Source: Gammaproteobacteria bacterium
Lineage (GTDB): Bacteria; Pseudomonadota; Gammaproteobacteria; Steroidobacterales; Foliamicaceae
DNA: 64,000 nt
Direction: 5' to 3'
Assembly: GCA_026708965.1 (NCBI GenBank)
Contig: JAPOTY010000037.1
Span: 89,949 to 153,948 of the forward strand
Every line of letters starts with the position of its first letter. Position 1 is the first letter of the stretch. The position numbers and the translations under genes were made by a program. This document shows positions 34,052 to 48,629 of this stretch, in pieces. Below the pieces are notes generated by a model. That model worked only from the letters and a program-made list of their open reading frames with translations, was not told where the DNA came from and ran no database searches.

Positions 34052-34126
34052 GCGGGAATAGCTCAGTGGTAGAGCACAACCTTGCCAAGGTTGGGGTCGC
34101 GGGTTCAAGTCCCGTTTCCCGCTCCA
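34052..34126 (+). tRNA. tRNA-Gly (anticodon GCC), CCA encoded
   Basis: GCGGGAATAGCTCAGTGGTAGAGCACAACCTTGCCAAGGTTGGGGTCGCGGGTTCAAGTCCCGTTTCCCGCTCCA. Acceptor, D, anticodon and T arms all pair. Near-identical to E. coli tRNA-Gly(GCC) from memory. Confidence 0.95.
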
Positions 34127-34170: not shown

Positions 34171-34244
34171 GGCCAGGTGGCAGAGTGGCGATGCAGCGGA
34201 CTGCAAATCCGTGTACGCCGGTTCAATTCCGGCCCTGGCCTCCA
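34171..34244 (+). tRNA. tRNA-Cys (anticodon GCA), CCA encoded
   Basis: Acceptor GGCCAGG/CCTGGCC, anticodon loop CTGCAAA, T-loop GGTTCAATTCC, discriminator U. Confidence 0.95.
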
Positions 34245-34248
34245 GAAA

Positions 34249-35319
34249 TCAGTAGTTGATCGAGGGATTATCGCCGGGGTAGATCACGCCGGCCACCAGC
34301 ATGCTTTCGTCGCTGGTGCATTCCAGCGAATGGCGCTGCTTGCGGGGCAGGAAAATCACGTCGCCCGCCGCAACCGGCGTCTTCGCGTTGTCTGTCCAGA
34401 GGCAGCCTTCGCCGGAAACCACGATAAGCGTTTCCTCATAGAGATGGCGGTGGGCCGCGGCTTTCGACCGTGGAATTTCGCCGATGAACTGGGCGCCGTT
34501 CTCGAATCCCTGATGCTTATCGATCAGTACCTGGAAGAAACGGTCGGCCATCGGGGTGGCCTTGCCCCGGTCCATTGCGATGGTGCGGCCGGGATAGGCG
34601 GCATCGAAATAGCCGCCAACGCCGCGCCGCCACAAAGGGCCCCAGGAATACGGGAAAATGCTGGCATAAGCGGTGAGCGGCCGATCGGGCGGGGCGGTGA
34701 GCGCAAATATTTCCCCAGGGCGGACAAAAGCGCCGGTGCGGGAACCGAGCGCGAATATGCGGGGTCCGATGGCGAGTTCGCCCGAGCCGCTGGCGACGAA
34801 CAGGAGCACCTGCCGCCGCGGGAACTCCATGGCTTGCGAGTAGCCGGGCGGGATCGCGAGATGAAACTGCGACTGGTGCCGGGCGCCGTCCTCCGGGCCG
34901 ATGAGCTTGCGGACCTCAACGGTGCCTGCGCCTTCGTCAGGCAGTTGGTCGATCCGGCGGACCTGGCAGCTTCCGTCCAGCGCCACGCATCCCGGCGAAG
35001 CCTCTTCGGCGAGCGGGATGGCTTGGTTTTCCGGACTCATGGGATCGTCGGTCTCGTATTTTTCGCGGAGGTTGTTATGGCTGCCGTCGCAAAAGGGAGC
35101 GCTGGACGTGTGCTTGCAGCCGCAGAAGAGCACTTCCTCGCCGTTGGCTTTTGCCTGGTAGGGCAGGGGAACGATGCCGGTGCCCTTGTGCGAGCCGTCG
35201 CAGTACGGCTGGTTTTTCGACTGGCCGCAGGCGCACCAGAAATAGCGCTTGCCTTTCTCAAGCTCGGCGTAGCACGGCTTGTATTTGGCGATAACAGGTT
35301 GCTGGGTTGCGTCGCTCAT
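34249..35319 (-). CDS. Fusion protein: two CDGSH iron-sulfur (mitoNEET-type) motifs + bicupin
   Basis: CACGQSKNQPYCDGSH and CGCKHTSSAPFCDGSH are followed by two cupin barrels (...HRHLYEETLIVVSGEG...). Start chosen at MSDATQQ; an alternative ATG is at 35367. Confidence 0.8.
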   Translation of the reverse strand: MSDATQQPVIAKYKPCYAELEKGKRYFWCACGQSKNQPYCDGSHKGTGIVPLPYQAKANGEEVLFCGCKHTSSAPFCDGSHNNLREKYETDDPMSPENQAIPLAEEASPGCVALDGSCQVRRIDQLPDEGAGTVEVRKLIGPEDGARHQSQFHLAIPPGYSQAMEFPRRQVLLFVASGSGELAIGPRIFALGSRTGAFVRPGEIFALTAPPDRPLTAYASIFPYSWGPLWRRGVGGYFDAAYPGRTIAMDRGKATPMADRFFQVLIDKHQGFENGAQFIGEIPRSKAAAHRHLYEETLIVVSGEGCLWTDNAKTPVAAGDVIFLPRKQRHSLECTSDESMLVAGVIYPGDNPSINY

Positions 35320-35439
35320 CTGGCTTCTTGGCGCTGCCTGTTTTCCGGCGCTGGATTGCCTCTTCATTCTAGCTTCCCCGGCATCAGCTCCCTTGGCAAG
35401 GCAAAATTGGCGCTGCGAATCAAGAAAAGGGACCCGCTT

Positions 35440-36612
35440 ATGAAATGGCCCGCAGACCGCATTGCGCAGAGTTCGGAGAAGAGTTTCGGCATGTACGAGC
35501 AAGCCTTGCCGCTAATGGCGCAAGGCGTGGACGTGATCCATCTGGAGGTGGGCAGGCCCAGTTTCGACACGCCGGCGCATATCAAGGAGGCCTGCAAGGC
35601 CGCCTTGGATGCCGGAATGGTGCATTACGGCGATTTTTTGGGCAACGAGCCGTTTCGTCGGGCGCTGGCCCGGAAACTGGCGGCGCGAAACGGCATCCGG
35701 GCGGCGGCGGATGAGGTGCTCGTGACCAGCGGCTTGACGCATGGGGCCTACATCACCTGCATGGCGGCCCTGGATCCAGGCGATGAAGTTGTGCTGCTTT
35801 CTCCGTATTACCCGCAGCATATCAACAAGATCGAACTGGCTGGCGGGATGGTGGTGACGGCGCCGCTGGACCGCTCGCGCAATTTTGCGCTGGATGGCGC
35901 CGCGCTGCGCGAACGGCTGAGTCCGCGCACCCGGATGATCGTGCTGGTTAATCCGGCCAATCCAACAGGACGCGTCTATACCCGGGAAGAGCTGCGGGAA
36001 TTGGCGGATATCGCCATTGAGCGCGATCTGCTCGTGATGTCCGACGAGGTCTATGAACAGATCGTGTTCGATAATGCCCGCCATGTCAGCATCGCTTCGC
36101 TGCCCGGCATGCGGGAACGCACGATCACGCACTTCGCCTTCACCAAGGCCTATGCGATGGACGGTTGGCGCATGGGCTACGCGACGGCCCCCAAGCGGTT
36201 CATCGATGCCATGCTGAAGGTCTCGAAGAACGATATCGCCCACGTTAACGTGTTCATACAGGAAGGGGGGCGCGCGGCGGTGTCCGGCTCCCAGGAAGCC
36301 GTCGAGGATATGGTGCGCGAAGATTGCCGCCGCCGCGATTTGGTGGTGGAACGCATGAACGCGATGCCGGGCGTGCGCTGCCCGATGCCGGAAGGCAGCA
36401 TTTACGCTTTTCCGGATATTTCCGGGACCGGCTGGGACGACGCAGGCCTGGCGCGGGCGCTGCTCAAGGAAACCAGCGTTTGCGTGGAGGCGGGATCGTT
36501 CTACGGACAGGCAGGGGCGGGGCATCTGCGCGTCTGTTTCGGGGCCGAGCCCTACGAGCGGCTGGAAGTCGCGATGGACCGCATGCAGGCCTTCCTCGCT
36601 TCCCGCAGCTAA
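35440..36612 (+). CDS. Class I/II pyridoxal-phosphate-dependent aminotransferase
   Basis: Start at MKWPADR, inside the 811-aa track ORF. VIHLEVGRPSFDTP, NPANPTG and the FTKAYAMDGWRMGY (PLP-lysine region) are typical. Confidence 0.9.
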   Translation: MKWPADRIAQSSEKSFGMYEQALPLMAQGVDVIHLEVGRPSFDTPAHIKEACKAALDAGMVHYGDFLGNEPFRRALARKLAARNGIRAAADEVLVTSGLTHGAYITCMAALDPGDEVVLLSPYYPQHINKIELAGGMVVTAPLDRSRNFALDGAALRERLSPRTRMIVLVNPANPTGRVYTREELRELADIAIERDLLVMSDEVYEQIVFDNARHVSIASLPGMRERTITHFAFTKAYAMDGWRMGYATAPKRFIDAMLKVSKNDIAHVNVFIQEGGRAAVSGSQEAVEDMVREDCRRRDLVVERMNAMPGVRCPMPEGSIYAFPDISGTGWDDAGLARALLKETSVCVEAGSFYGQAGAGHLRVCFGAEPYERLEVAMDRMQAFLASRS

Positions 36613-36643: not shown

Positions 36644-37990
36644 ATGAAAACGGAAACCTGGTCGTCCACGCGCGGCTTTATCCTGGCCGCGGTGGGCGGC
36701 GCCGTCGGCCTCGGCAACCTCTGGCGGTTTCCGTACATCGCCGGCAGCAACGGCGGCAGCGCATTCGTGCTGGCGTATATCGGCTGGGTGCTGCTGCTGG
36801 GCTTGCCGCTGGTGATCGGCGAACTGGCGCTGGGGCGGCGCGGCGGAAGAAACGCGGTCCACACCATGCGCGAGGTGGCCGCGCGCGAAGGGCGCAGCGG
36901 CGCCTGGATCCTGATCGGCTGGTTGTCGATACTCGTTCCGCTGGTGGGCGTGACCTACTACAGCATCGTGGCCGGCTGGTCTCTTAATTACACGCTGCTG
37001 GCGGCGCGGGGCGCGTTCGAGGGGATCAGCGCCGACGGCTCCCGGGTGCTGTTCGGGGAGTTGTTGAGCGACCCCTTGCGCCTCATGTTCTGGCACGGGC
37101 TGTTTATCGCCATCGTGGCGGCAGTGATCGCGGGCGGGATCCGCAAGGGCCTGGAGCGGGCCAGCAAGCTGATGATGCCGGGCCTTTTCGCCCTGTTGCT
37201 GTTGCTGGCGGGCTGGGCCGCGGTCGCCGGCGATTTCAGCCGGGGAATGGCGTTTTTATTCAGCGCCGATTTTTCCGCGCTCACGTTCGACGGCGTTTTA
37301 ATGGCGCTGGGGCAGGCGCTCTTTTCGCTGGCTATCGGCGTGGGCATGCTCATCACCTATGGAGCCTACGTGCCGCGGCGCGTATCGCTGCCGCAGGCCG
37401 GCGCGCTTATCGCCGGCGCCGATTCGATGGTGGCCCTGCTCGCGGGAATGGCGATCTTTCCCATCGTTTTCGCCGTGGGCCTGGAAGCCAACAGCGGCCC
37501 CGGGCTTATCTTCGAGACCCTGCCGGTGGCGTTCGCGGGCATGCCGGGCGGCGTGCTGCTGGCAACCCTGTTCTTCGTGATGCTAAGCCTGGCCGCGATC
37601 ACAACGGGATTCGGCATGATCGAGCCGGCGGTGGCGTGGCTGTCGCGCGATACTTTCCTTTCGCGCCCGCTGGCAACGCTGCTGATGGGCTTTTTGGCCT
37701 GGGCCGCCGGCCTCGTGTTCGTGCTCTCGTTCAACGTATGGGCCGGAGTGAAGCCATTGGGCGGCGTGTTCAGCGGGATGAACTTGTTCGAGGTGATCGA
37801 TTTCGTCGTGGCCAATCTGCTGCTCCCGTCCAACGCCCTGCTCCTGGCCGTTTTCCTGGGCTATGTCTGGCCGCTCGGTTCCGCGCGCGGCGAAACCGCC
37901 TTGAGCGGCCCTTTGCTTAAGATTTGGCGCGCGTTGCTGTGGCTCGCGCCGTTCCTGATCCTAGCCGTGCTCTGGAGCCTGCTGCGCTGA
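36644..37990 (+). CDS. Sodium-dependent transporter, neurotransmitter:sodium symporter (SNF/NSS) family
   Basis: 448 aa. WSSTRGFILAAVGGAVGLGNLWRFPY is the NSS signature. Multiple TM helices. Confidence 0.9.
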   Translation: MKTETWSSTRGFILAAVGGAVGLGNLWRFPYIAGSNGGSAFVLAYIGWVLLLGLPLVIGELALGRRGGRNAVHTMREVAAREGRSGAWILIGWLSILVPLVGVTYYSIVAGWSLNYTLLAARGAFEGISADGSRVLFGELLSDPLRLMFWHGLFIAIVAAVIAGGIRKGLERASKLMMPGLFALLLLLAGWAAVAGDFSRGMAFLFSADFSALTFDGVLMALGQALFSLAIGVGMLITYGAYVPRRVSLPQAGALIAGADSMVALLAGMAIFPIVFAVGLEANSGPGLIFETLPVAFAGMPGGVLLATLFFVMLSLAAITTGFGMIEPAVAWLSRDTFLSRPLATLLMGFLAWAAGLVFVLSFNVWAGVKPLGGVFSGMNLFEVIDFVVANLLLPSNALLLAVFLGYVWPLGSARGETALSGPLLKIWRALLWLAPFLILAVLWSLLR

Positions 37991-38016
37991 CCGGAGAGCG
38001 GGCGGATGCCCTCCGG
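37991..38016 (+). terminator. Possible intrinsic terminator after the NSS transporter gene
   Basis: CCGGAG..GGGC-GGAT-GCCC-TCCGG stem followed by CTTTG. The stem is bulged and the T-tract is weak. Confidence 0.3.
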
Positions 38017-38039
38017 CTTTGCTAAACTGCTCTCCCTGT

Positions 38040-38355
38040 GCCCGGGTGGCGAAATAGGTATACGCAGGGGACTTGAGATTGAGCGCCGGTCGGGAAACCG
38101 CCCGATGCAACAGGAGTCAAATTCGGGGAAACCTCAGCGCGGCTAGGTGGTGGCAATCCCGAGCTAAGCCCCGGTTTGACGGGGAAAGTGTAGAGACTTG
38201 ACGGCTCCGGCCTACGTCGCTTGCAAGCGATAGGGCAGAGGGAAAGTCCAGACCCCAAAGGGAGCGCGCGGCGCCTCCCGCGGCGAAAGCCGTAGCGGGT
38301 AAGAAAATCCCCCGGGGGAAACCCCGTGCCGGTTCGAGTCCGGCCCCGGGCACCA
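38040..38355 (+). tRNA. tRNA-Leu (anticodon UAA) interrupted by a group I intron. Exons 38040..38074 and 38304..38355; the spliced product is 87 nt including CCA
   Basis: 5' exon GCCCGGGTGGCGAAATAGGTATACGCAGGGGACTT. 3' exon AAAATCCCCCGGGGGAAACCCCGTGCCGGTTCGAGTCCGGCCCCGGGCACCA. Joined, they give acceptor GCCCGGG/CCCGGGC, anticodon stem GGGGA/TCCCC, loop CUUAAAA, a long variable arm and T-arm GCCGG-TTCGAGT-CCGGC. The result is collinear with E. coli leuZ from memory. Confidence 0.9.
38075..38303 (+). ncRNA. Group I intron (IC3-like, tRNA-type), 229 nt, no internal ORF
   Basis: Inserted between U34 and A35, the classic tRNA-Leu(UAA) site. The 5' exon ends in U and the intron ends in G. The core strings GTCAAATTCGGGGAAACC (38116..38133) and GTGTAGAGACTTGACGG (38188..38204) closely match the Azoarcus/cyanobacterial tRNA intron core as I remember it. 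Confidence 0.8.
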
Positions 38356-38498
38356 GATCTTATTGCTGTAAGAAACCACTGCTAGAATCAAGCAAACCAA
38401 GATGAGGTGCCGACGCATACACGGATAATGCAACAGCGGGTTTGCTATAGTTGCATCCAAGATCGTTCGGGCCAAAAAGAAAGATTATTGCCCTAGGC

Positions 38499-41400
38499 AT
38501 GGTTTCAGCAAGAATCTCCGCTTTTGCCGCCCTGCTGGGGTTGGTTTTGGCGCTCTCCTATTTTTGGATGCATCGAAATGCAGTTGAAGAGACTGCGCCC
38601 GCAGCGGATACTCCAAGCCCCGAGATCTTGCTTCAGCAGGTGGCGCAAAGAACCCTGCGCGAGAGCGAGGCGGGCACCGACTTGGCCATCCCGCAAGCTC
38701 CTCCGCAGGCCGCGTCGTCCAACTTCGAGGCGGAGCCCGCCGCAAGCGGTTTGACGCTGCCGTCCGGCTACGAGCTCGCCACGCATAGGGGGGCGATGCA
38801 AAGCGCTCCATTGGAAGAAAAAGCGGACGCGCCCATCCCTCCCAATCCCGATTGGCTGGAACCGGCTATTGGCGTGGAATCCATCACGAGGCATCCGCGG
38901 GCTCTAGCGGGCGAGCCGGTGTTCGCCGCGCTGCGCGTTGCGCCGGGCGCATCCTTCACCGATTTGCGCATGCGAATCAAGCGGCTTGGCGCGCGGGTCG
39001 AAGGCGTTTCCGGCGACCACCTGCGCATCCTCGTGCCGCCGAGCGCTCAAATCGAGGCCATTGCCAGTATTCCCGGCATCCTCGGCATCGGCGTTTTGCC
39101 GTCCGCATTGAAATTCGACCGGCAGTTCGCCGAAAGCATGATATCGGCATCCGCAAGCGATGCCACTCCGGTGTTCATCACTCTGATGGGCGAAGACGGC
39201 GATGGCCGCTTGAAGCAAGCCTTGACCGGCCTTGGCGTTGTTGTGGGCGACTACGATGCCGATCTGCGCAGCTACACAGCCAATCTCCCTGCGGGCGCCG
39301 TCCGCCAGGTCGCTGCCCAGGACTACGTGATGCGCATCGAGCCGGTGCCGATTGTCACGACCTACCTAGGTTCGGGAGTGCCTGTCGTGGGCGGCGATGC
39401 GTTGCGGCGCTACAACTACGCATTGGAGGGTTTTCAAGGTTTAACCGGCCGCGGCATTGCCGTTGGCATGGTTGACACGGGTTTGAACGTTCGTCACGAG
39501 GACATGGGCTTTGGACGGACGAGCATTTGCGGCGCCAACTTTGTGCCGAGCGAGCATTGGGATCTTTGGTCGGATCGCGGTCACCACGGCACTCATGTCT
39601 TCGCCGTCATCGCCGGTGCCGGCCGCGGCGATCCGATCCGCGCGGGCATGGCGCCCAATCTCAGTCATCTGCGCTTCGCCAAGGTGCTGAGCGCCTCCGG
39701 AGGCGGAAACTTTGATGATGTCCGGCGCGGCATGACCTACTTGTCGCAAAGCACCCGTTGCGGTACCCAAAGCGGGGCCGGCCCGGCAATCAAGCCGATG
39801 GTTGTGAATGCGAGCCTCGGGTATGGCTCAATCACCGAAAAAGGCCGCGGAGTCGCGGAACGAAAAGTCGATTCCCTTGTTTACGACGGGCAACTTTATG
39901 TGGTCGCGCAAGGGAATTCGGGGGCTTTAGCTTTCTCGAACTTGAGCACGGCCAAAAACGCGCTCGCCGTTGGCGCAGTATTCGATGACGGCGCCATCGC
40001 GCCGTTCAGCAGCTACGGGCCCGCCGGCGATGGCCGCCTGATTCCCAAAGTCATGGCCCCGGGCGTGGGCATCCATGCGGCACGCGGCGGCGGAGCGCGC
40101 GATGGCTATATCGAGTTCAGCGGCACCAGCCAGGCATCGCCCGCAGTTGCCGGTCTCGCCGCGCTCTTGCTTGAGAGCGAACCCAATCTCCGCGACCGGC
40201 CGGCTTTGGTGCGGGCGCGCCTCATGGCGAGCGCCATCAAGCCCGATCCTTATCTCGAATCAGCCGAAGCGTTTCCGAGAGATAACAGCAAGGGTCCCGG
40301 CGCCATGCAGCACCAATACGGCATGGGGCCTGTCTCGGCGCTCGCGAGCATCGCATCCCTTAAGCAAGCCGATGGCTGGCATGCCGGAAGCGCGCTTGCC
40401 GCGCCGGTCGATGGCAGCTACAACCATATTTCCATTGACGTGCCCGAAGGCGCCAGCCGTCTCGACCTGGTCATGACATGGGATGAGGCGCCCGCCGACA
40501 CCCTGACCAGTTCGGTATTCAACGACCTTGATCTCTATCTCGATCTGGGCGCGGATTGCAGCGCCGGCGTTTGCGGCCAGCACGCCTCCCGGTCCAGAGT
40601 TGATAACGTCGAGTGGATCATCATCAACGATCCTGCTCCCGGCACCCACTCCGTCCGGATTGTGCCGGAGCGCCTTTATGGCGAGGCCGTCAACGCCGCT
40701 CTCGCATGGAACATCATTCGCGGCGACTCGACGCCAAAGCTTTCCTTGAAAGCGGAGGAGATTCCCCATGCAGGCGCCAACGAGCCCGTCACGTTCAGGT
40801 TCAGTGTCCATACAAGCGGCTATCTTGCCTACGGCGCAACGCTGCATTTCGGTTGCACCGATACGGTCGGGCAGGATTGCGAGGCCTTGGCGGAAGCGCT
40901 GGAGGGAGCGACCGCGCATGTCGTCCGCAAGGATCATCTCACGAGACCAGTGCCGATCCGGCTGGCCGCGCCGGACAGATCCTCAAATTCTTCCCGGTCT
41001 GTCGGGCCGGCCATCAGCCTGGGCGAGATTGCGCCGGACGATCCGAGATATCTCGAAGTGCGATTGGACAAGAATAAACTGCCCACCGGCACCGGACTTC
41101 ATGTCACAGCCAGCGCATGGAACGCCGTTTCCGCGAGCCGCACACTGTTTGCTGACAACTCCGCGCCGGTGCCCGAAAACGATGCTTTTGAGCAGCGTTT
41201 GCCCGTCATCCCTGACGAAGCGGGCGAGGTGCAGGTTGCGCTCTCGGCCGCATCCCGCGAGCCGGGCGAACCGGACGCGCGAGGCCATACGCGCAGCCTC
41301 TGGTACGAATGGCAAGTGGCGCAAAACGGCATCCACAGAATCAACCTTGCCGAAACGGATACCAACCGCCCGTCAGAGGTGTTATTCGATATCTACACCG

Positions 41401-44369
41401 GCGGGAAGATTGCGGCGCTTACCCATATCGATTCCAAAGAAGGCAGCGAAATCACATTCGCGGCGCGCAGGGGCACGAATTACCAGGTGCGCTTATCGAC
41501 CGATTCGGGAATCAATCCGGTGTTGACCATGCGCTGGGCGCCGGCCGGCACTCCGCCCGCCAATGACCATTTGGCCAATGCGGTGGTTTTGTCCGGAAGC
41601 GAAGGCGCCGTCGCTGGCGATAACAGGGACGCCACGCTTGAACAAGGCGAGTTTTGGGGCGGGCTGGCATCGAGCATATGGTATTCGTGGACCGCGCCCG
41701 CGGATGGCGAATGGGTTTTCGAGGTGCCGCCGCTGGACCCCGATCTTCCGCCGGATACCGGGCTCCCGCCGGGCTTCGAGCTTCCGCCTGATACTCAGTT
41801 GCCGGCGGGTTTGGGAAACGCTTCAGCGGGCGTGGCGGTCATGGTGTTCGCCGGCCGGTCATTGGATGACTTGCGCTTGCTCTCAAAACCCGAACCCGAC
41901 AGCGCGAGCAGGTTTCGTGCTGTGCAAGGCGAGCGCTACCATATCGCCGTTGTGTCAGAGGATGCGGGCGCCTCCACCCGTGAGTTCCAGCTGCGCTGGA
42001 GCCAGGTTGCCGCGACAGAGGACGACACTTTCGCCATTCCGCAAGATTATTTTGACCAGGCTGTGCTGCTTGAAGGCGCGGAGGGTTCGGAGTCCGCTGT
42101 TTATCTGCCCAACTTGACCAAGCAAACGCGCGAGCCAATCGAGACCGGCATCGGCACGCTCTGGTGGCGCTGGACCGCGCCCTCAAGCGGACGATTCACC
42201 TTCCTGCTTAAGGATAGCGGCCTGCAGATCAGCATATTCGAGGGCGAGGCCTTGGATACGCTCACGCTCGTTGCTCTGCGCGCAGGAAGGGCGCCGCTCG
42301 TTCTCGATGCCGAGGGCGGCCGGACCTATCGGATTGCCATCGGGCGTCCGGCCGACGGGATTAATACCCCTTACGACACTTTATTCGGGTTTCGGGTGCC
42401 TTTCGAGTTTCAGTGGGGTGCCACGCCGGGCAACGACGACCGCGCCGGCGCCAGCCGGGTGGCAGGCAGCAACGGCCAGGTTCAATTCTCCATCACGCTC
42501 GCCACCGTGGAGAACGACGAGCCGCTTGCGTTTGATACGGTTGCGCGCGAATCGCTTTGGTGGCGATGGAGCGCGCCGGCCTCGGGATGGCAGGCGTTTT
42601 CCGTCGTCGGTAATCCAGCCTGGGCCATTATTTCCGTGTATCGGGCAAACGACGACTGGACGGTCAGCCCGGAGCCAGTGGCCACCAGCGAATACACCTA
42701 CCTGGGCAACGCTCAGGTGGAAGCCGCGTTCAGGGCCCGCGCTTCAGAGCAGTATCTCGTGCGCGTCGCCAAGCGTCCCGGAGGTTTCGATGAATCGCCG
42801 CTCGATGCCCGGACACTGGCTTGGCGGGAGATTCCCGCGCCAGCCTATCTCGCCTACCGAGGCACGAACGATGACGCGCCGCAGGCCAGCAATCCGATTC
42901 GGGCGCCGGGCAGCCTTGCCATCAACGATGAAGGCGATCTCTTGTTCGCCACAGCGGCATCCGGCTTGCTTGTGTTTCACCGCAACGCCGAAAGCGGAGC
43001 GCTCCGGTTGGCGACGCTTATCGATCGTGAATCAGAAACCGATAGGCTCGACCTAAGCGCTGTCGATGAATCGACACTTTGGTGGAGCAAGCGCCACGGG
43101 CGATTATTCGCGCTCCACTCCATGCAAAGCAATGCTTTTGCCCCGCCGGTCGGGACCGCATCGAAGTGGATTCGACACGAAATCAGCGTTGAGAACGACC
43201 CGTCTCCGAGTTTTCTCGGCCGCAATGCGTTCGCCGCCACGTCGGACGACCGCTTTTTCTACGTGTCGCAAAATTCAGGCAATCAGGAGGCCAAAATCGG
43301 CGTGTATAGCGTTGAATCGGCATCGACCATCCGGCGCATGCAAAGTCTTGTCGCAACCACCCCCGAAAACGACACGGAAGTGCTTGTTGATGCGCTCGGA
43401 ATCGTGCAGCAGCTGGTCGTCTCGCCGGATGACTCGCACCTTTTTGCGGCAACCGAGTCCGCGTTATTGGTGTTTTCCATCGATCCGCAAAACGGGCAGC
43501 TTGAACGAGTGCATCATGTTTTGGTCGAGCCTGCCCCGGACACGCCTTTTGAGGAATTTTTCCGGCTATCGGGAGTTTCGCTGAACAGCGCGGCGGATCG
43601 ATTATTCGTGGCTGGCGATTTTGCTCCGCAGGTTGCGGTGTTTGATGTCTCCGAAGGTTTTTCGATTCCCCGCCATCTCGATACCTTGACAGCGTTTGGC
43701 GACGACAAAAGCTTCGCTGTGTTGTCGCATCTGGCTGGTCCGAGAGGTATAAACTTCGTGCCATGCTGGCGGATGTTCACGCAACACGGCATCGATGCCG
43801 TGGATGTGCTGTGCGAGGGCGGTCAATTTGTCGCCCTATGGGACAAAGAGGAGCAGAAGCTGCGCGTTGAGGACTGGGGCATGAGCGGTCGTCCAAACCG
43901 CTTCGACCAGATATTGCCGTTCGCGTTCCTTGGATTGACATTGCGAGGCCAGCAAGCGGCAACTAGCCCGGGCGGCGAGCATCTCTACGTAGCCGCCAGC
44001 TCGCGCGTCTGCGAGACCGACTGCATTCATATCTTTGAGCGCTCACGCACCGCAAAGGCCGATATATCGGCCAATCAGGCGCCGATCATCAACAAGCGGC
44101 TCAGAAACCAGGTCGCCATAGTCGGGCGGCCGTTCTCTTATTGGATTCCCCGCGGCGCCTTCACCGACCCCGATCGCGATATGCTCGCTTATTCAGCCTC
44201 CGGACTGCCCGCCTGGCTGAGCTTCGATACCCGTTCACTGCTATTCAGCGGTACGCCCGAAGGGCGCCACGTCACGATCGCCCCGCTGGTCATTGAAGTC
44301 GCTGCAAGCGATCAAGAGGGAGAGAGCGCAACGTTGCGTTTTGCCCTGCGGGTATTGCCCAACGGGTGA
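38499..44369 (+). CDS. Giant secreted multidomain protein: signal anchor, propeptide-like repeats, subtilisin (S8) protease, P/PPC-like domain, four PPC-like repeats, beta-propeller, C-terminal cadherin/dystroglycan-type Ig domain
   Basis: Catalytic triad motifs VGMVDTG (Asp codon 39474..39476), HHGTH (about 39585) and GTSQASP (Ser codon 40128..40130). Repeats ND..A..L....SLWY.W.AP..G run over about 41178..42785. Propeller blades cover about 42850..44045. The motif SASGLPAWLSFD...FSGTP lies at about 44075..44360. The ATG at 38499 gives MVSARISAFAALLGLVLAL; the track ORF begins at TTG 38451. Confidence 0.85.
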   Translation: MVSARISAFAALLGLVLALSYFWMHRNAVEETAPAADTPSPEILLQQVAQRTLRESEAGTDLAIPQAPPQAASSNFEAEPAASGLTLPSGYELATHRGAMQSAPLEEKADAPIPPNPDWLEPAIGVESITRHPRALAGEPVFAALRVAPGASFTDLRMRIKRLGARVEGVSGDHLRILVPPSAQIEAIASIPGILGIGVLPSALKFDRQFAESMISASASDATPVFITLMGEDGDGRLKQALTGLGVVVGDYDADLRSYTANLPAGAVRQVAAQDYVMRIEPVPIVTTYLGSGVPVVGGDALRRYNYALEGFQGLTGRGIAVGMVDTGLNVRHEDMGFGRTSICGANFVPSEHWDLWSDRGHHGTHVFAVIAGAGRGDPIRAGMAPNLSHLRFAKVLSASGGGNFDDVRRGMTYLSQSTRCGTQSGAGPAIKPMVVNASLGYGSITEKGRGVAERKVDSLVYDGQLYVVAQGNSGALAFSNLSTAKNALAVGAVFDDGAIAPFSSYGPAGDGRLIPKVMAPGVGIHAARGGGARDGYIEFSGTSQASPAVAGLAALLLESEPNLRDRPALVRARLMASAIKPDPYLESAEAFPRDNSKGPGAMQHQYGMGPVSALASIASLKQADGWHAGSALAAPVDGSYNHISIDVPEGASRLDLVMTWDEAPADTLTSSVFNDLDLYLDLGADCSAGVCGQHASRSRVDNVEWIIINDPAPGTHSVRIVPERLYGEAVNAALAWNIIRGDSTPKLSLKAEEIPHAGANEPVTFRFSVHTSGYLAYGATLHFGCTDTVGQDCEALAEALEGATAHVVRKDHLTRPVPIRLAAPDRSSNSSRSVGPAISLGEIAPDDPRYLEVRLDKNKLPTGTGLHVTASAWNAVSASRTLFADNSAPVPENDAFEQRLPVIPDEAGEVQVALSAASREPGEPDARGHTRSLWYEWQVAQNGIHRINLAETDTNRPSEVLFDIYTGGKIAALTHIDSKEGSEITFAARRGTNYQVRLSTDSGINPVLTMRWAPAGTPPANDHLANAVVLSGSEGAVAGDNRDATLEQGEFWGGLASSIWYSWTAPADGEWVFEVPPLDPDLPPDTGLPPGFELPPDTQLPAGLGNASAGVAVMVFAGRSLDDLRLLSKPEPDSASRFRAVQGERYHIAVVSEDAGASTREFQLRWSQVAATEDDTFAIPQDYFDQAVLLEGAEGSESAVYLPNLTKQTREPIETGIGTLWWRWTAPSSGRFTFLLKDSGLQISIFEGEALDTLTLVALRAGRAPLVLDAEGGRTYRIAIGRPADGINTPYDTLFGFRVPFEFQWGATPGNDDRAGASRVAGSNGQVQFSITLATVENDEPLAFDTVARESLWWRWSAPASGWQAFSVVGNPAWAIISVYRANDDWTVSPEPVATSEYTYLGNAQVEAAFRARASEQYLVRVAKRPGGFDESPLDARTLAWREIPAPAYLAYRGTNDDAPQASNPIRAPGSLAINDEGDLLFATAASGLLVFHRNAESGALRLATLIDRESETDRLDLSAVDESTLWWSKRHGRLFALHSMQSNAFAPPVGTASKWIRHEISVENDPSPSFLGRNAFAATSDDRFFYVSQNSGNQEAKIGVYSVESASTIRRMQSLVATTPENDTEVLVDALGIVQQLVVSPDDSHLFAATESALLVFSIDPQNGQLERVHHVLVEPAPDTPFEEFFRLSGVSLNSAADRLFVAGDFAPQVAVFDVSEGFSIPRHLDTLTAFGDDKSFAVLSHLAGPRGINFVPCWRMFTQHGIDAVDVLCEGGQFVALWDKEEQKLRVEDWGMSGRPNRFDQILPFAFLGLTLRGQQAATSPGGEHLYVAASSRVCETDCIHIFERSRTAKADISANQAPIINKRLRNQVAIVGRPFSYWIPRGAFTDPDRDMLAYSASGLPAWLSFDTRSLLFSGTPEGRHVTIAPLVIEVAASDQEGESATLRFALRVLPNG

Positions 44370-45608: not shown

Positions 45609-46732
45609 CAGGTTTTCACGCCGCCGAATATATGGTATTCGCCCGAACCTAGGGGGTCGTATTCGGCGAAAACATGCTCGGCGTCAAAGCCGCCGTCGAT
45701 CAGCGCCTGACGCATGTCGGTGTCGGCATAGCCGGTCCAGAAGGGCTCGCCGTTGTTGACGACCTGCCAGTGATTGGTGACCTGCTTGGTGATGGAGAGG
45801 CGGTTGGGCTGGTAGGGCGTGTCCCCGTTCAGAAAGATCCCGCCAGGCGCCAACAGGCGATGGGCTTCGGCCATGATGCCGGGCAGGATGTCATGCCAGG
45901 TTTCATGGAACATGATGTGCGACACGATCAAGTCGAACTGGCCGTCGGCGAAGCCTGTTTCGTTCGCGTTGGCCTGCCGGTAGTTGATGGCCAGCCCTTT
46001 GTCCTCCGCCCATACATGGGCAAATTGCAAGAAGGGCCCGGATAGATCCACGCCCCATACCTCGGCCTTCGGAAACGCCTGCTTGTAGGCAATGGTATGC
46101 ACGCCCACGCCGCAGCCCATGTCGAGCAGGCTGGCGGGATCAGGTTTCGCGAACCGGCGGCGCAGAGCGCCTAGAAGGTAGTTTCCCATGCCTGGGTCGC
46201 CCACCTCGTCGCCCTCCGAGAGCCCCTTGGCGGCGCGGTACAGCTCGCCGGTGCCCATGTAATCCATGCCCCGCCTGAGGCTTGCATCGCCCGGCTGGCC
46301 GAAATAGCCGCCCGGCTGGCGATGAATTTCAACCTGCCGGATGGGATCGGGCGGAACGAAATCTTCTTTCAGCTCCAAGCGTCCTAGCGGCTCTCTCCTT
46401 GCCAGGGCCTCGCGGCGCGCTTCAAATTCCGGCAACAGCCGGTCGCAGGTTTCGCCTACGGTTTCCCACATCAGATCCTGGGAGGTGAATACGGAGCTTC
46501 CCCACAACTGGAAGAGGTGGTCTCCGCGAAAGGCCTCGGTTCCCTCCAGGCGATCCTTGGGCGCGCGTCCATGCGCCTTCGCATAGCCGGGCTTGACGGC
46601 ATCCTCGTAGCGCTTCGCAAGCCGCGCCTCCAGCGGGCCGTTCAAGTAGCCTTTCAGCGCGCCCACGAATGCCTGTCTCGATGCCTCGTCGTGGCGGGGG
46701 CGGTAAATTTCCTTCAATGTCTTTTCCGTCAT
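45608..46732 (-). CDS. Atypical class I SAM-dependent methyltransferase (module copy 3)
   Basis: 374 aa. LLDMGCGVGV, AEVWGVD, FDLIVSHIMFHET and APGGIF. Shares the EIHRQPGGYFG block and helical N-domain with 2922..4166 and 5031..6080. Confidence 0.85.
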   Translation of the reverse strand: MTEKTLKEIYRPRHDEASRQAFVGALKGYLNGPLEARLAKRYEDAVKPGYAKAHGRAPKDRLEGTEAFRGDHLFQLWGSSVFTSQDLMWETVGETCDRLLPEFEARREALARREPLGRLELKEDFVPPDPIRQVEIHRQPGGYFGQPGDASLRRGMDYMGTGELYRAAKGLSEGDEVGDPGMGNYLLGALRRRFAKPDPASLLDMGCGVGVHTIAYKQAFPKAEVWGVDLSGPFLQFAHVWAEDKGLAINYRQANANETGFADGQFDLIVSHIMFHETWHDILPGIMAEAHRLLAPGGIFLNGDTPYQPNRLSITKQVTNHWQVVNNGEPFWTGYADTDMRQALIDGGFDAEHVFAEYDPLGSGEYHIFGGVKT

Positions 46733-46946
46733 TGGGTTATCCTCGCGCGGAACGTCTCAATGTGCGGGGCATCTTATATCCGCGAGCACGGTAGCGAAAC
46801 TAGCCATTGCGTTATTGAGGCTCAAGTGGGCATTCGCTCTCTTGGGCGATGAACGCACAGACATTGCGATGGAATTCATTGCTCGGCTTAGGGCGCGGCG
46901 GGCAGGGGCATCCGCCTCTGGCGCTTGCCGCCAGCGGCGAGCAGGA

Positions 46947-47375
46947 TCAGAGCGTTTTCAGGTAGGCAATGAGCGCGGCGCGATTCCGCGCCTGCGGAAG
47001 GCCCGCGAAGTTCATGCTGGTGTCGGGAACCAGGTCGAACGGGCGCTGCAGCCACAGATCGAGTTTTTCTTCGTTCCAAACGAAATCCTGCGCTTTCAAG
47101 GCATCGGAATAGATTGAATCCTCCAGAACCGCCACTTGCCGGTTGAAGATTCCCGCGAGATTCGGGCCAATCTTGCTGCCGGAAACAATTTCCGTGGCAT
47201 GGCAGGCTTGGCAGAAGACATAAAGCCGCTTGCCCCGCGCAACCAACCTGGAAGCGGTGCTGTCGGATTGGGCGGCATCCTGCGCGACCAGCGTCGGAGG
47301 CAGAGCAACCGCCCCGCCAAGCAGAATTGCGAACAACGCGCCAGCGGCCATTGCCCTCCCGGTTTTTGAGATCAT
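46947..47375 (-). CDS. Periplasmic class I c-type cytochrome
   Basis: 142 aa with a signal peptide. Single heme motif CQACH and a distal Met region (DTSMNFAGL). Confidence 0.85.
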   Translation of the reverse strand: MISKTGRAMAAGALFAILLGGAVALPPTLVAQDAAQSDSTASRLVARGKRLYVFCQACHATEIVSGSKIGPNLAGIFNRQVAVLEDSIYSDALKAQDFVWNEEKLDLWLQRPFDLVPDTSMNFAGLPQARNRAALIAYLKTL

Positions 47376-47621
47376 AGTGTGCGCTCCAGTATTTCGACAG
47401 CCGCCCGCTCACCAATGCCGATTCCATTCCGCACAGCAACAGTTTAAGAGACATCACGCCAGCGAATAAGCCCGCTGGTTGGTGCTTGCATGCACCGCCG
47501 GAGCCGCGCGCCGCGATCAGCGCTCTTCTGCCGCTATAGAAGCGAGCCGGCTTGCGCGCGGTCGCTCGGCTTATTCAGTATGCGAGAATGCTGCTTCTGC
47601 AGTGAATGCGGAGGACAAGCA

Positions 47622-48629
47622 ATGCGGCATGTGCAGCTTTCGGCAGCCGGGCTTAAGCATCTGGCGCTGGTATCGGGCGGCACGCCCGATCCGGGGCCGG
47701 GGGAAGTGCGGGTGCGGATGCACTCGGCGGCGGTGAATTACCGCGATTACATGATTTGCGCGGGATTCTACGGGGGCGAGAAGGAATATCCGCTGATCCC
47801 GCTGTCGGATGGCGCCGGCGTGGTTGAGTCCATAGGTTCCGAAGTCACGCAATACCGCCCGGGCGACCGGGTAATGACCGTGTTTTGGCAGGATTGGGAA
47901 GCGCGGCCGGTGCGGTCCGGCGTGCGGACCCGTTCGACCGGCTGCGAGGCGCCCGGCGCCCTCGCCGAAATAGGCGTGTTCCCCGAGAGCGCGCTGCTGC
48001 CAGTGCCTGATGGCATGGCCATGGAGACCGCCGCCGCGCTGGGCTGCGCCGGTGTTGCGGCTTGGACGGCGCTGCGCTGCGGCGGTCCTGTGGGGCCAGA
48101 TTCGAAGGTGCTGCTGCTGGGCACCGGCGGCGTGTCCATCTTCGCGCTGCAAATCGCCAAGTCCATGGGGGCAACCACGGTGATTACTTCTTCGAGCGAC
48201 GAAAAGCTGGAGCGGGCAAGGGCGTTGGGCGCGGATGAAACCATCAACTACGCCAACACGCCCGAATGGGGGCTGGAGGTCTTCGAATTGGCTGGCGGCG
48301 GCGTGGATGTGGTGGTGGAGACCGGCGGCATGGGCACGCTTGGGCAATCGCTGCAGGCGCTGGGCCTCAATGGGTCCATTGGCATGCTCGTCGCGCTTGG
48401 CGGAATCACTGCGGAAATAAACCCGATGGCGCTGATCGGAAAGTGCGCAAGCATCCACGGAATTACCGTTGGCGCCCGCGAAGACCACGCCGCATTGAGC
48501 AAGCATCTGGCCCAGCATGGCATGGCGGCGGTGATTGACCGCGTGTTTCCGCTCGATCAGGGGCCGGAGGCAATCCGGGCGATCGCCCGCGGCGACCATT
48601 TCGGCAAGCTTCTGGTGAGCATTGCCTGA
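47622..48629 (+). CDS. Zinc-type / MDR-superfamily NAD(P)-dependent oxidoreductase (quinone-oxidoreductase-like)
   Basis: Start at MRHVQLSAAG, with GGAGG upstream. GEVRVRMHSAAVNYRD and the Rossmann motif LLLGTGGVS are present. Confidence 0.85.
   Translation: MRHVQLSAAGLKHLALVSGGTPDPGPGEVRVRMHSAAVNYRDYMICAGFYGGEKEYPLIPLSDGAGVVESIGSEVTQYRPGDRVMTVFWQDWEARPVRSGVRTRSTGCEAPGALAEIGVFPESALLPVPDGMAMETAAALGCAGVAAWTALRCGGPVGPDSKVLLLGTGGVSIFALQIAKSMGATTVITSSSDEKLERARALGADETINYANTPEWGLEVFELAGGGVDVVVETGGMGTLGQSLQALGLNGSIGMLVALGGITAEINPMALIGKCASIHGITVGAREDHAALSKHLAQHGMAAVIDRVFPLDQGPEAIRAIARGDHFGKLLVSIA

Follow-up and report, generated by a model that had tools for sequence, protein, structure and literature searches.

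A predicted compact, Azoarcus-like group I intron in the tRNA-Leu(UAA) gene of a gammaproteobacterium close to Candidatus Foliamicus

Four classes of bacterial tRNA intron are regarded as classical in the survey of 5292 split tRNA genes by Williams 2020 (bioRxiv 10.1101/2020.01.27.920355), one of them being Leu.3Ug, and the group I intron database cited there rates all four as subgroup IC3. Classically, the Leu.3Ug site is known from the trnL(UAA) introns of cyanobacteria and plastids (Xu et al. 1990; Kuhsel et al. 1990, both as cited in PMC3984707). A further described system is the 205-nucleotide (nt) intron in the anticodon loop of the Azoarcus pre-tRNA-Ile, an efficient self-splicing RNA at 37 C (PMC13168695). 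Here we describe a split tRNA-Leu(UAA) gene in a 64,000-nt stretch of contig JAPOTY010000037.1 (assembly GCA_026708965.1), the whole of which we call the window. As judged from comparative sequence evidence, the 229-nt intervening sequence is a compact, Azoarcus-like group I intron of IC3 type lying between U34 and A35 of the tRNA, the IC3 assignment resting on resemblance and on the statement in Williams 2020 about the classical classes rather than on a formal classifier. A sequence-only reading of the window had called this the classic insertion site, and rightly so, since it is the Leu.3Ug site that Williams 2020 lists as classical.

Direct reading and coordinate extraction divided the gene into the following parts.

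38040..38074, plus strand: 5' exon of tRNA-Leu(UAA), 35 nt, GCCCGGGTGGCGAAATAGGTATACGCAGGGGACTT, terminating ...GGGGACTT; acceptor strand, D arm and 5' anticodon stem, ending in C32 U33 U34 (ARAGORN, leuZ alignment).
38075..38303, plus strand: predicted group I intron, IC3/Azoarcus-like, 229 nt, beginning GAGATTGAG right after U34 and ending TAAG (covariance model R1, local RF00028 match, covariation).
38304..38355, plus strand: 3' exon of tRNA-Leu(UAA), 52 nt, AAAATCCCC...GGGCACCA; A35 A36 onward, variable arm, T arm, acceptor strand, discriminator A and encoded CCA (ARAGORN, leuZ alignment).

With introns allowed, ARAGORN called a tRNA-Leu(taa) at [38040,38355], placing the 229-nt intron at position 36; in its default mode, it called only tRNA-Gly(GCC) and tRNA-Cys(GCA) and missed the tRNA-Leu gene. 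The joined halves folded in ARAGORN into the cloverleaf of a canonical 87-nt class II tRNA with a long variable arm and the anticodon loop CUUAAAA. The spliced tRNA has the same length as Escherichia coli leuZ and aligned with it without gaps, 66 of the 87 positions being identical. At the predicted spliced junction, ...GGGGACUU is joined to AAAAUCCCC..., which can also be written as GGUAUACGCAGGGGACUU/AAAAUCCCCCGGGGG. The exon and intron coordinates proposed in the sequence-only reading were exact to the base, as were the class II tRNA with its loop and the places of the motifs GTCAAATTCGGGGAAACC (38116..38133), GTGTAGAGACTTGACGG (38189..38205) and GAG (38081..38083).

The whole gene is base-for-base identical in three assemblies, namely contig JAPORG010000011.1 of an NCBI metagenome-assembled genome (GCA_026710305.1) and two metagenome assemblies from the ENA made from different samples. 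Two Logan contigs likewise agree with it fully over the first 200 nt. The locus is therefore real and no assembly artefact. The gene calls of three assemblies place no coding sequence over either the tRNA or the intron, contrary to the earlier expectation that standard gene callers would put spurious open reading frames (ORFs) here; the sole ORF overlapping the tRNA-Leu gene is a mechanical one at 38212..38475 on the minus strand. UUA accounts for 15 of the 412 Leu codons in neighbouring genes, so that a tRNA with a UAA anticodon is needed. The split gene may encode the sole UUA-reading tRNA of the cell.

The identity of the intervening sequence was examined with a covariance model, R1, which we built from 35 distant tRNA-Leu(UAA) introns sharing 60-78% identity with that of the window; neither the window nor any of its nine close relatives was used in the training. 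R1 found a single match on the 64-kb window, at 38067..38311, with 206.9 bits and an E-value of 1.1e-69, and the match spans the full length of the model (positions 1-247). For comparison, the sequences used in training score 195-263 bits. A chance resemblance or an assembly chimera is excluded by this full-length match and by the identical sequence in three assemblies from two samples.

Homologues for structural comparison were retrieved by scanning one genome per bacterial species with a core pattern consisting of the two motifs picked out in the sequence-only reading, GTCAAATTCNNNGAAACC and AGAGACTNGACGG, separated by 40-70 nt. We aligned the window's intron with 44 tRNA-Leu(UAA) introns at the same site using MAFFT (alignment A1, 45 sequences). 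RNAalifold on A1 recovered the anticodon stem, P1, P3, P4, P5, P6/P6a, P8, P9, P9a and P9b, and the base of P2 and the P7 pseudoknot were added by hand. In the resulting structure, 97.3% of cells are paired, as opposed to 31-45% when the partners were slid by 1-3 columns. Compensatory changes occur in 30 of 55 pairs, and none of 500 shuffles came up to the observed values. An alignment fitted to the model, which unlike the MAFFT alignment is biased towards the structure of the model, gave 96.0% paired cells and compensatory changes in 40 of 61 pairs, including all eight in P2 and all six in P9a. By helix, pairing reaches 100% in P3, 99.6% in P4, 99% in P6 and 94% in P6a, 100% in P7 (with one compensatory pair) and 93-96% in P8, the slid controls over both alignments lying at 31-46%. 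The U.G at the splice site, the terminal G and the AAA of J4/5 are invariant in 45 of 45 sequences, and each position of the GAAA in L9 varies little or not at all. The predicted fold is laid out below in window coordinates.

38072..38083, plus strand: P1, formed by exon CUU (38072..38074) with guide GAG (38081..38083); U34.G38081 is the wobble at the 5' splice site, invariant in 45/45.
38079..38080, plus strand: putative P10, in which UU could pair with the two A that open the 3' exon.
38084..38109, plus strand: P2 hairpin with a GAAA tetraloop at 38094..38097; 8/8 model pairs compensatory.
38113..38118, plus strand: 5' strand of P3, GGAGUC; 100% paired with 38203..38208, three compensatory pairs.
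38123..38128 with 38157..38162, plus strand: P4 (RF00028 match, covariation).
38129..38131, plus strand: J4/5, AAA, invariant in 45/45.
38132..38153, plus strand: P5/P5a, followed by J5/4, CAA (RF00028 match, covariation).
38163..38189, plus strand: P6/P6a hairpin; all distal pairs covary.
38193..38199, plus strand: 5' strand of P7, GAGACUU, with A38194 bulged; presumed guanosine-binding helix, a role taken from the family; six pairs with 38244..38249, 100% paired, one U-A/A-U exchange in four sequences.
38203..38208, plus strand: 3' strand of P3, GGCUCC (covariation).
38211..38234, plus strand: P8 hairpin (CCUA..UAGG and UCGCU/AGCGA); by analogy the presumed receptor for the P2 tetraloop.
38244..38249, plus strand: 3' strand of P7, AAGUCC, forming the pseudoknot with P3 (covariation).
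38252..38300, plus strand: P9 domain, closed by the P9 helix of 38252..38255 with 38297..38300.
38260..38279, plus strand: P9a hairpin; 6/6 pairs covary.
38281..38292, plus strand: P9b hairpin with a GAAA loop at 38285..38288; 4/4 pairs covary.
38303, plus strand: omega G, the terminal intron nucleotide just before the 3' splice site; invariant column in 45/45 (G237 of the first row).

The group I reading proposed earlier is thus borne out by the full-length R1 match and by covariation in every helix, including the P3/P7 pseudoknot. Its proposal for P1, with exon CUU facing GAG and a U.G wobble, holds as well, the C-G, U-A and U.G pairs being unchanged in 45 of 45 sequences. All IC3-type traits that we tested are present, namely the size of 229 nt, the lack of an ORF, the lack of P2.1 and P5abc extensions, and the GAAA loops on P2 and P9. 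No homing endonuclease is encoded in the intron, whose 229 nt are fully taken up by ribozyme helices. The longest stop-free stretch, 76 codons, spans the whole 229 nt in one minus-strand frame of this G+C-rich sequence. The earlier description of an intron without an ORF is in keeping with this, as the only long stop-free stretch is that minus-strand frame and an endonuclease would not fit. Boundaries, fold, family membership and conservation under selection are shown by these comparisons.

Several observations weigh against this identification. At the gathering threshold, Rfam gave no intron match in the window, and a search narrowed to RF00028 (Intron_gpI) gave a local match at 38116..38205 with 28.9 bits (E-value 2e-5), well below the cut-off of 50 and confined to model positions 53-154, which comprise P3 through P6 plus the 5' strand of P7. 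Close relatives are likewise below the threshold with RF00028 (L041, 33.8 bits; L062, 32.2 bits). The homologues were retrieved with a pattern from the core of the window's own intron, which makes 27 positions invariant by construction and leaves the pairing partners of the patterned core and all peripheral helices unconstrained. Folding of the single sequence gave a minimum free energy of -89 kcal/mol with z = -0.39 relative to shuffles and a non-native minimum-energy fold. P2 in the window contains one C.A and one U.C mismatch. In a promoter scan of 37700..38700, there was no sigma-70-like site between the upstream symporter gene and the tRNA, and terminator-like sites in the same region occurred at chance level only.

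The low Rfam score is characteristic of the clade to which the window belongs and does not point to a different kind of element. The Ca. Foliamicus-like clade as a whole scores 29-34 bits with RF00028, always locally. Other members retrieved with the core pattern pass the cut-off at full length with 52.7-61.9 bits: a Pyrinomonadaceae tRNA-Leu(UAA) intron included in the alignment (L006, 56.3 bits), a Vibrio tRNA-Arg intron (L010, 61.9 bits), a Rhodocyclaceae tRNA(CAU) intron (L046, 54.8 bits) and a Leptolyngbya tRNA-Arg intron (L104, 52.7 bits). Williams 2020 used a threshold of 18-20 bits and describes the RF00028 seed as being without bacterial sequences. The check with RF00028 suggested in the sequence-only reading thus gave a local sub-threshold match and no hit at the gathering cut-off; a consistent P3-P7 core fold, which that reading also asked for, is present. 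The single-sequence folding is uninformative for such a G+C-rich intron RNA; for the comparative structure, the computed energy of the nested part is -73.8 kcal/mol.

The sub-threshold Rfam score and the two P2 mismatches could be taken to indicate a decayed relic, that is, an intron that no longer splices in a tRNA pseudogene while an intact tRNA-Leu(UAA) elsewhere serves the cell. We consider this hardly likely at all. The window keeps every core helix intact, and it has the U.G wobble, the terminal G, J4/5 and all pairs of P7. Nine sister species retain the intron at 88-91% identity with changes that are compensatory rather than disruptive. The gene also occupies the leuZ position of a conserved Gly-Cys-Leu cluster, and the low Rfam score is common to the whole clade. 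The best overall explanation is very probably a leuZ-type tRNA-Leu(UAA) gene, from a close relative of Ca. Foliamicus among the Gammaproteobacteria, interrupted by an IC3 intron of the self-splicing type.

From the chemistry of the family (PMC3984707, PMC13168695), we infer that the window's intron would be removed by two guanosine-dependent transesterifications. The precursor would fold into P1-P9 with the P3/P7 pseudoknot, and free guanosine held in P7 would attack the bond after U34, within the U.G wobble of the 3-base-pair (bp) P1. The terminal G38303 would then occupy the same site in P7, and the freed 3'-OH of U34 would attack the bond after G38303, ligating the exons into an 87-nt tRNA with the anticodon loop CUUAAAA and its encoded CCA. 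The GAAA loops may dock P2 into P8 and P9b into P5, as they do in the Azoarcus intron, and splicing would probably proceed autonomously without protein.

Alternatively, the element could be a true group I intron that is not autonomous and requires a host protein, a chaperone or the tRNA body for useful rates, in keeping with the RNAalifold structure, which closes the intron with the anticodon stem. The Anabaena tRNA-Leu intron, reportedly studied by Zaug et al. in 1993, is said to require exon pairing in that stem. However, the Azoarcus intron, the closest studied relative, splices efficiently on its own (PMC13168695), and both stabilising GAAA loops are conserved in the window. We regard such dependence as unlikely and autonomous splicing as the preferred view.

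The core pattern gave at least 120 matches in the species genomes, and ARAGORN placed 112 of the 120 matches listed inside split tRNA genes. Among these 120, 44 are tRNA-Leu(UAA) introns with the identical junctions CUU/...G/AAAAUC; they come from 37 Gammaproteobacteria, five Acidobacteriota, one alphaproteobacterium and one betaproteobacterium. The gammaproteobacterial hosts include Pseudomonadales, Chromatiales, Methylobacter, Ca. Foliamicales, Rariloculaceae and Azotimanducaceae. Five ARAGORN calls of "Leu(taa)" in genomes of the candidate phyla radiation (CPR) type (L047, L063, L073, L085 and L088) violated the junction rule and were dropped. The nearest introns among the matches listed are those of nine species genomes, 88-91% identical to the window's intron, four of which are labelled Ca. 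Foliamicus and five other Gammaproteobacteria. Such introns had been described as sporadic and rare in proteobacteria, a description contradicted by at least 39 proteobacterial species genomes with an intron at the exact site and by the 5292 split tRNA genes in Williams 2020. The finding is therefore an ordinary one, the same intron being common in related bacteria.

In an alignment of the core regions of the retrieved introns, the top 14 neighbours of the window's intron are all tRNA-Leu(UAA) introns, with 76-92% identity, whereas the best intron that ARAGORN placed in another tRNA reaches 70% and the best tRNA(CAU) intron about 64%. Of the 113 introns in this alignment, 87 have an intron of their own tRNA type as nearest neighbour, which points to long residence of introns in their tRNA types rather than frequent hopping, and the window's intron looks vertically inherited within its clade. 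The same intron core was also seen in other tRNA genes called by ARAGORN, namely Met/Ile2(CAU), Arg(UCU, CCU, ACG), Ile(UAU), Leu(CAA), Phe, Ser, Thr, Pro, Gly and Val, in hosts that include CPR bacteria (Kaiserbacteria, Peregrinibacteria and Saccharibacteria), Chloroflexota and Rhodothermales; some of these anticodon assignments may be ARAGORN errors. The spread over other tRNAs fits the 21 classes in Williams 2020.

We also scanned metagenomes for the uninterrupted 30-nt junction of the D and anticodon arms (GGTANACGCAGGGGACTTAAAATCCCCCGG) and found it in at least 120 contigs, with 72 distinct tRNA sequences, from soil, gut, marine and other metagenomes. Among the matches listed, every complete intron-less tRNA departs from the spliced tRNA of the window by at least 7 of 87 positions. 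Other lineages thus commonly have the empty target site, and the scan bears on those lineages only and not on the window's genome.

Two further tRNA genes lie upstream in the window.

34052..34126, plus strand: tRNA-Gly(GCC), upstream partner in the ancestral Gly-Cys-Leu cluster (ARAGORN).
34171..34244, plus strand: tRNA-Cys(GCA), upstream partner in the ancestral Gly-Cys-Leu cluster (ARAGORN).

In three relatives (L041, L049 and L060), tRNA-Gly(GCC), tRNA-Cys(GCA) and the split tRNA-Leu(UAA) are adjacent, in the order of the E. coli glyW-cysT-leuZ operon. The order shared with the relatives and with E. coli identifies the window gene as the counterpart of leuZ. In the window, tRNA-Cys and tRNA-Leu are about 3.8 kb apart; between them lie genes for an aminotransferase, an SNF-family symporter and, on the minus strand, a cupin/CDGSH protein. 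The disrupted tRNA cluster suspected earlier is therefore real, being intact in the three relatives and parted in the window. The symporter gene stands directly upstream of tRNA-Leu in seven of the nine close relatives, with 78-89% amino-acid identity. A mechanical ORF of 811 amino acids (aa) at 34177..36612 on the plus strand crosses tRNA-Cys; the recorded gene calls there are a 390-aa aminotransferase starting far further in and the cupin/CDGSH gene of 356-372 aa on the opposite strand.

Downstream, at 38451..44369 on the plus strand, lies a very large subtilase (Peptidase_S8) gene with a C-terminal He_PIG Ig-like domain. Its start varies among the calls of the assemblies, which give 1909 or 1956 aa, and the mechanical ORF has 1972 aa. 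The gene was not found beside tRNA-Leu in any of the loci of relatives that were examined. The 64-kb window has a flat G+C profile and contains no att-like repeat of the tRNA 3' end; the Peptidase_S8 gene therefore bears no sign of a tRNA-integrated island. With introns allowed, ARAGORN further reported a "tRNA-Gln(ttg)" at 46578..47931 with a 1277-nt intron at position 29, where R1 was negative, and this call is most likely a false positive.

These data also bear on the possibility that the intron arrived recently by horizontal transfer as a mobile element, perhaps carried by a phage, instead of being an old resident. Viral contigs and a cultured phage do carry introns of the same family in their tRNA genes, and the distribution of these introns over bacteria is patchy: E. 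coli leuZ has no intron, and many uninterrupted tRNA-Leu(UAA) genes share the anticodon arm. Nevertheless, we find a recent arrival very unlikely. The intron carries no endonuclease gene and diverges in step with its exons; the same neighbour gene accompanies it in seven related species; its nearest relatives (the top 14, at 76-92%) all reside in tRNA-Leu(UAA), as against 70% for the best intron of another tRNA; and the G+C content is uniform, with no att-like repeat of the tRNA 3' end. Residence of the intron within its clade remains our preferred reading. A wider history can be put forward only tentatively, as a possibility that we rate on the doubtful side: the leuZ intron might be an old, mostly vertical resident of several gammaproteobacterial orders and Acidobacteriota rather than a cyanobacterial spill-over, with patchy spread to other lineages and tRNAs via phage-borne tRNA genes.

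The core pattern also matched 37 viral contigs of IMG/VR (L247-L283), for which R1 scores range from 106 to 210 bits. Many of these introns lie inside tRNA genes for Leu(UAA), Met/Ile(CAU), Arg, Pro, Gln and Tyr, in dense tRNA arrays, and some contigs hold two or three of them; examples are L259 (3553..5024), L275, L253, L254, L270, L271 and L283. Nearby genes matched phage protein families in four of five loci checked (L254, L270, L271 and L283, not L259). A blastn search of GenBank phages found one more case in Gordonia phage Daredevil (NC_048021.1, about 42172..42483, minus strand; equal to L284, 1454..1765). In this cultured temperate actinophage, an unannotated tRNA-Lys(UUU) gene called by ARAGORN is split after U34 by a 238-nt group I intron, which scored 136.7 bits with R1 (E-value 6e-47); the tRNA gene lies 566 nt from the integrase gene gp54. 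According to a 2014 review, all phage group I introns then known resided in protein-coding genes and none in phage tRNA genes. Related introns in phage-encoded tRNA genes may thus merit separate attention.

What the locus adds is practical. The default tRNA finder (ARAGORN) and the curated threshold of Rfam both miss the gene and the intron, and such genomes therefore appear to lack a UUA-reading tRNA. The apparent absence of tRNA-Leu(UAA) can distort statistics on tRNA complement and completeness for the clade. The intron extends a very well-studied ribozyme class by one further lineage and leaves the current understanding unchallenged. Having an extra P9a hairpin and a short P1 loop, the variant of the Ca. 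Foliamicus-like clade could serve as a convenient small natural ribozyme.

Among the known systems, the window's intron agrees with the Leu.3Ug class in the tRNA, the insertion point (CUU/intron...g/AAAA), the U at position -1, the terminal G, the small size and the lack of an ORF. The proteobacterial Leu.3Cg introns share the tRNA, the site and the phylum (Williams 2020). They have a C at position -1 and hence a C-G pair in P1, whereas the window and all 44 collected relatives have U.G. With the cyanobacterial and plastid trnL introns, the window's intron can be likened by site and published description only. The only cyanobacterial match among the 120 listed is the Leptolyngbya tRNA-Arg(CCU) intron, the same-site matches being proteobacterial or acidobacterial. 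Plastid and cyanobacterial trnL copies read CCAAAUUCAGAGAAACC and GCAGAGACUCAAUGG in the two core motifs.

The Azoarcus-type intron is alike in being compact, in its place in a tRNA anticodon loop, in its 3-bp P1 and in its GAAA loops on P2 and P9. We take its core motifs to be GUCAAAUUCGGNGAAACC and GUAGAGACUNGACGG, the same as those of the window. It differs in the tRNA, in the position within the loop and in length (205 nt compared with 229 nt), and the window's intron has in addition an extra P9a hairpin (38260..38279) and a short P5a. The internal loop of P8 in the window presumably departs from the canonical 11-nt receptor.

Closest of all are the other gammaproteobacterial tRNA-Leu(UAA) introns, found in 37 species genomes among the matches listed, which share the site and the fold at 66-91% intron identity. 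An intron of this kind is said to have been described in a subsurface gammaproteobacterium by Vepritskiy et al. in J Bacteriol in 2002. The window's clade differs from these introns in having G instead of A at the first position shown of the anticodon stem, in the very short loop of its P1 and in matching Rfam only locally. The window's intron is a previously unannotated addition to a well-known ribozyme class, set apart by the minor features of its clade: an extra P9a, a short P1 loop and poor Rfam scores.

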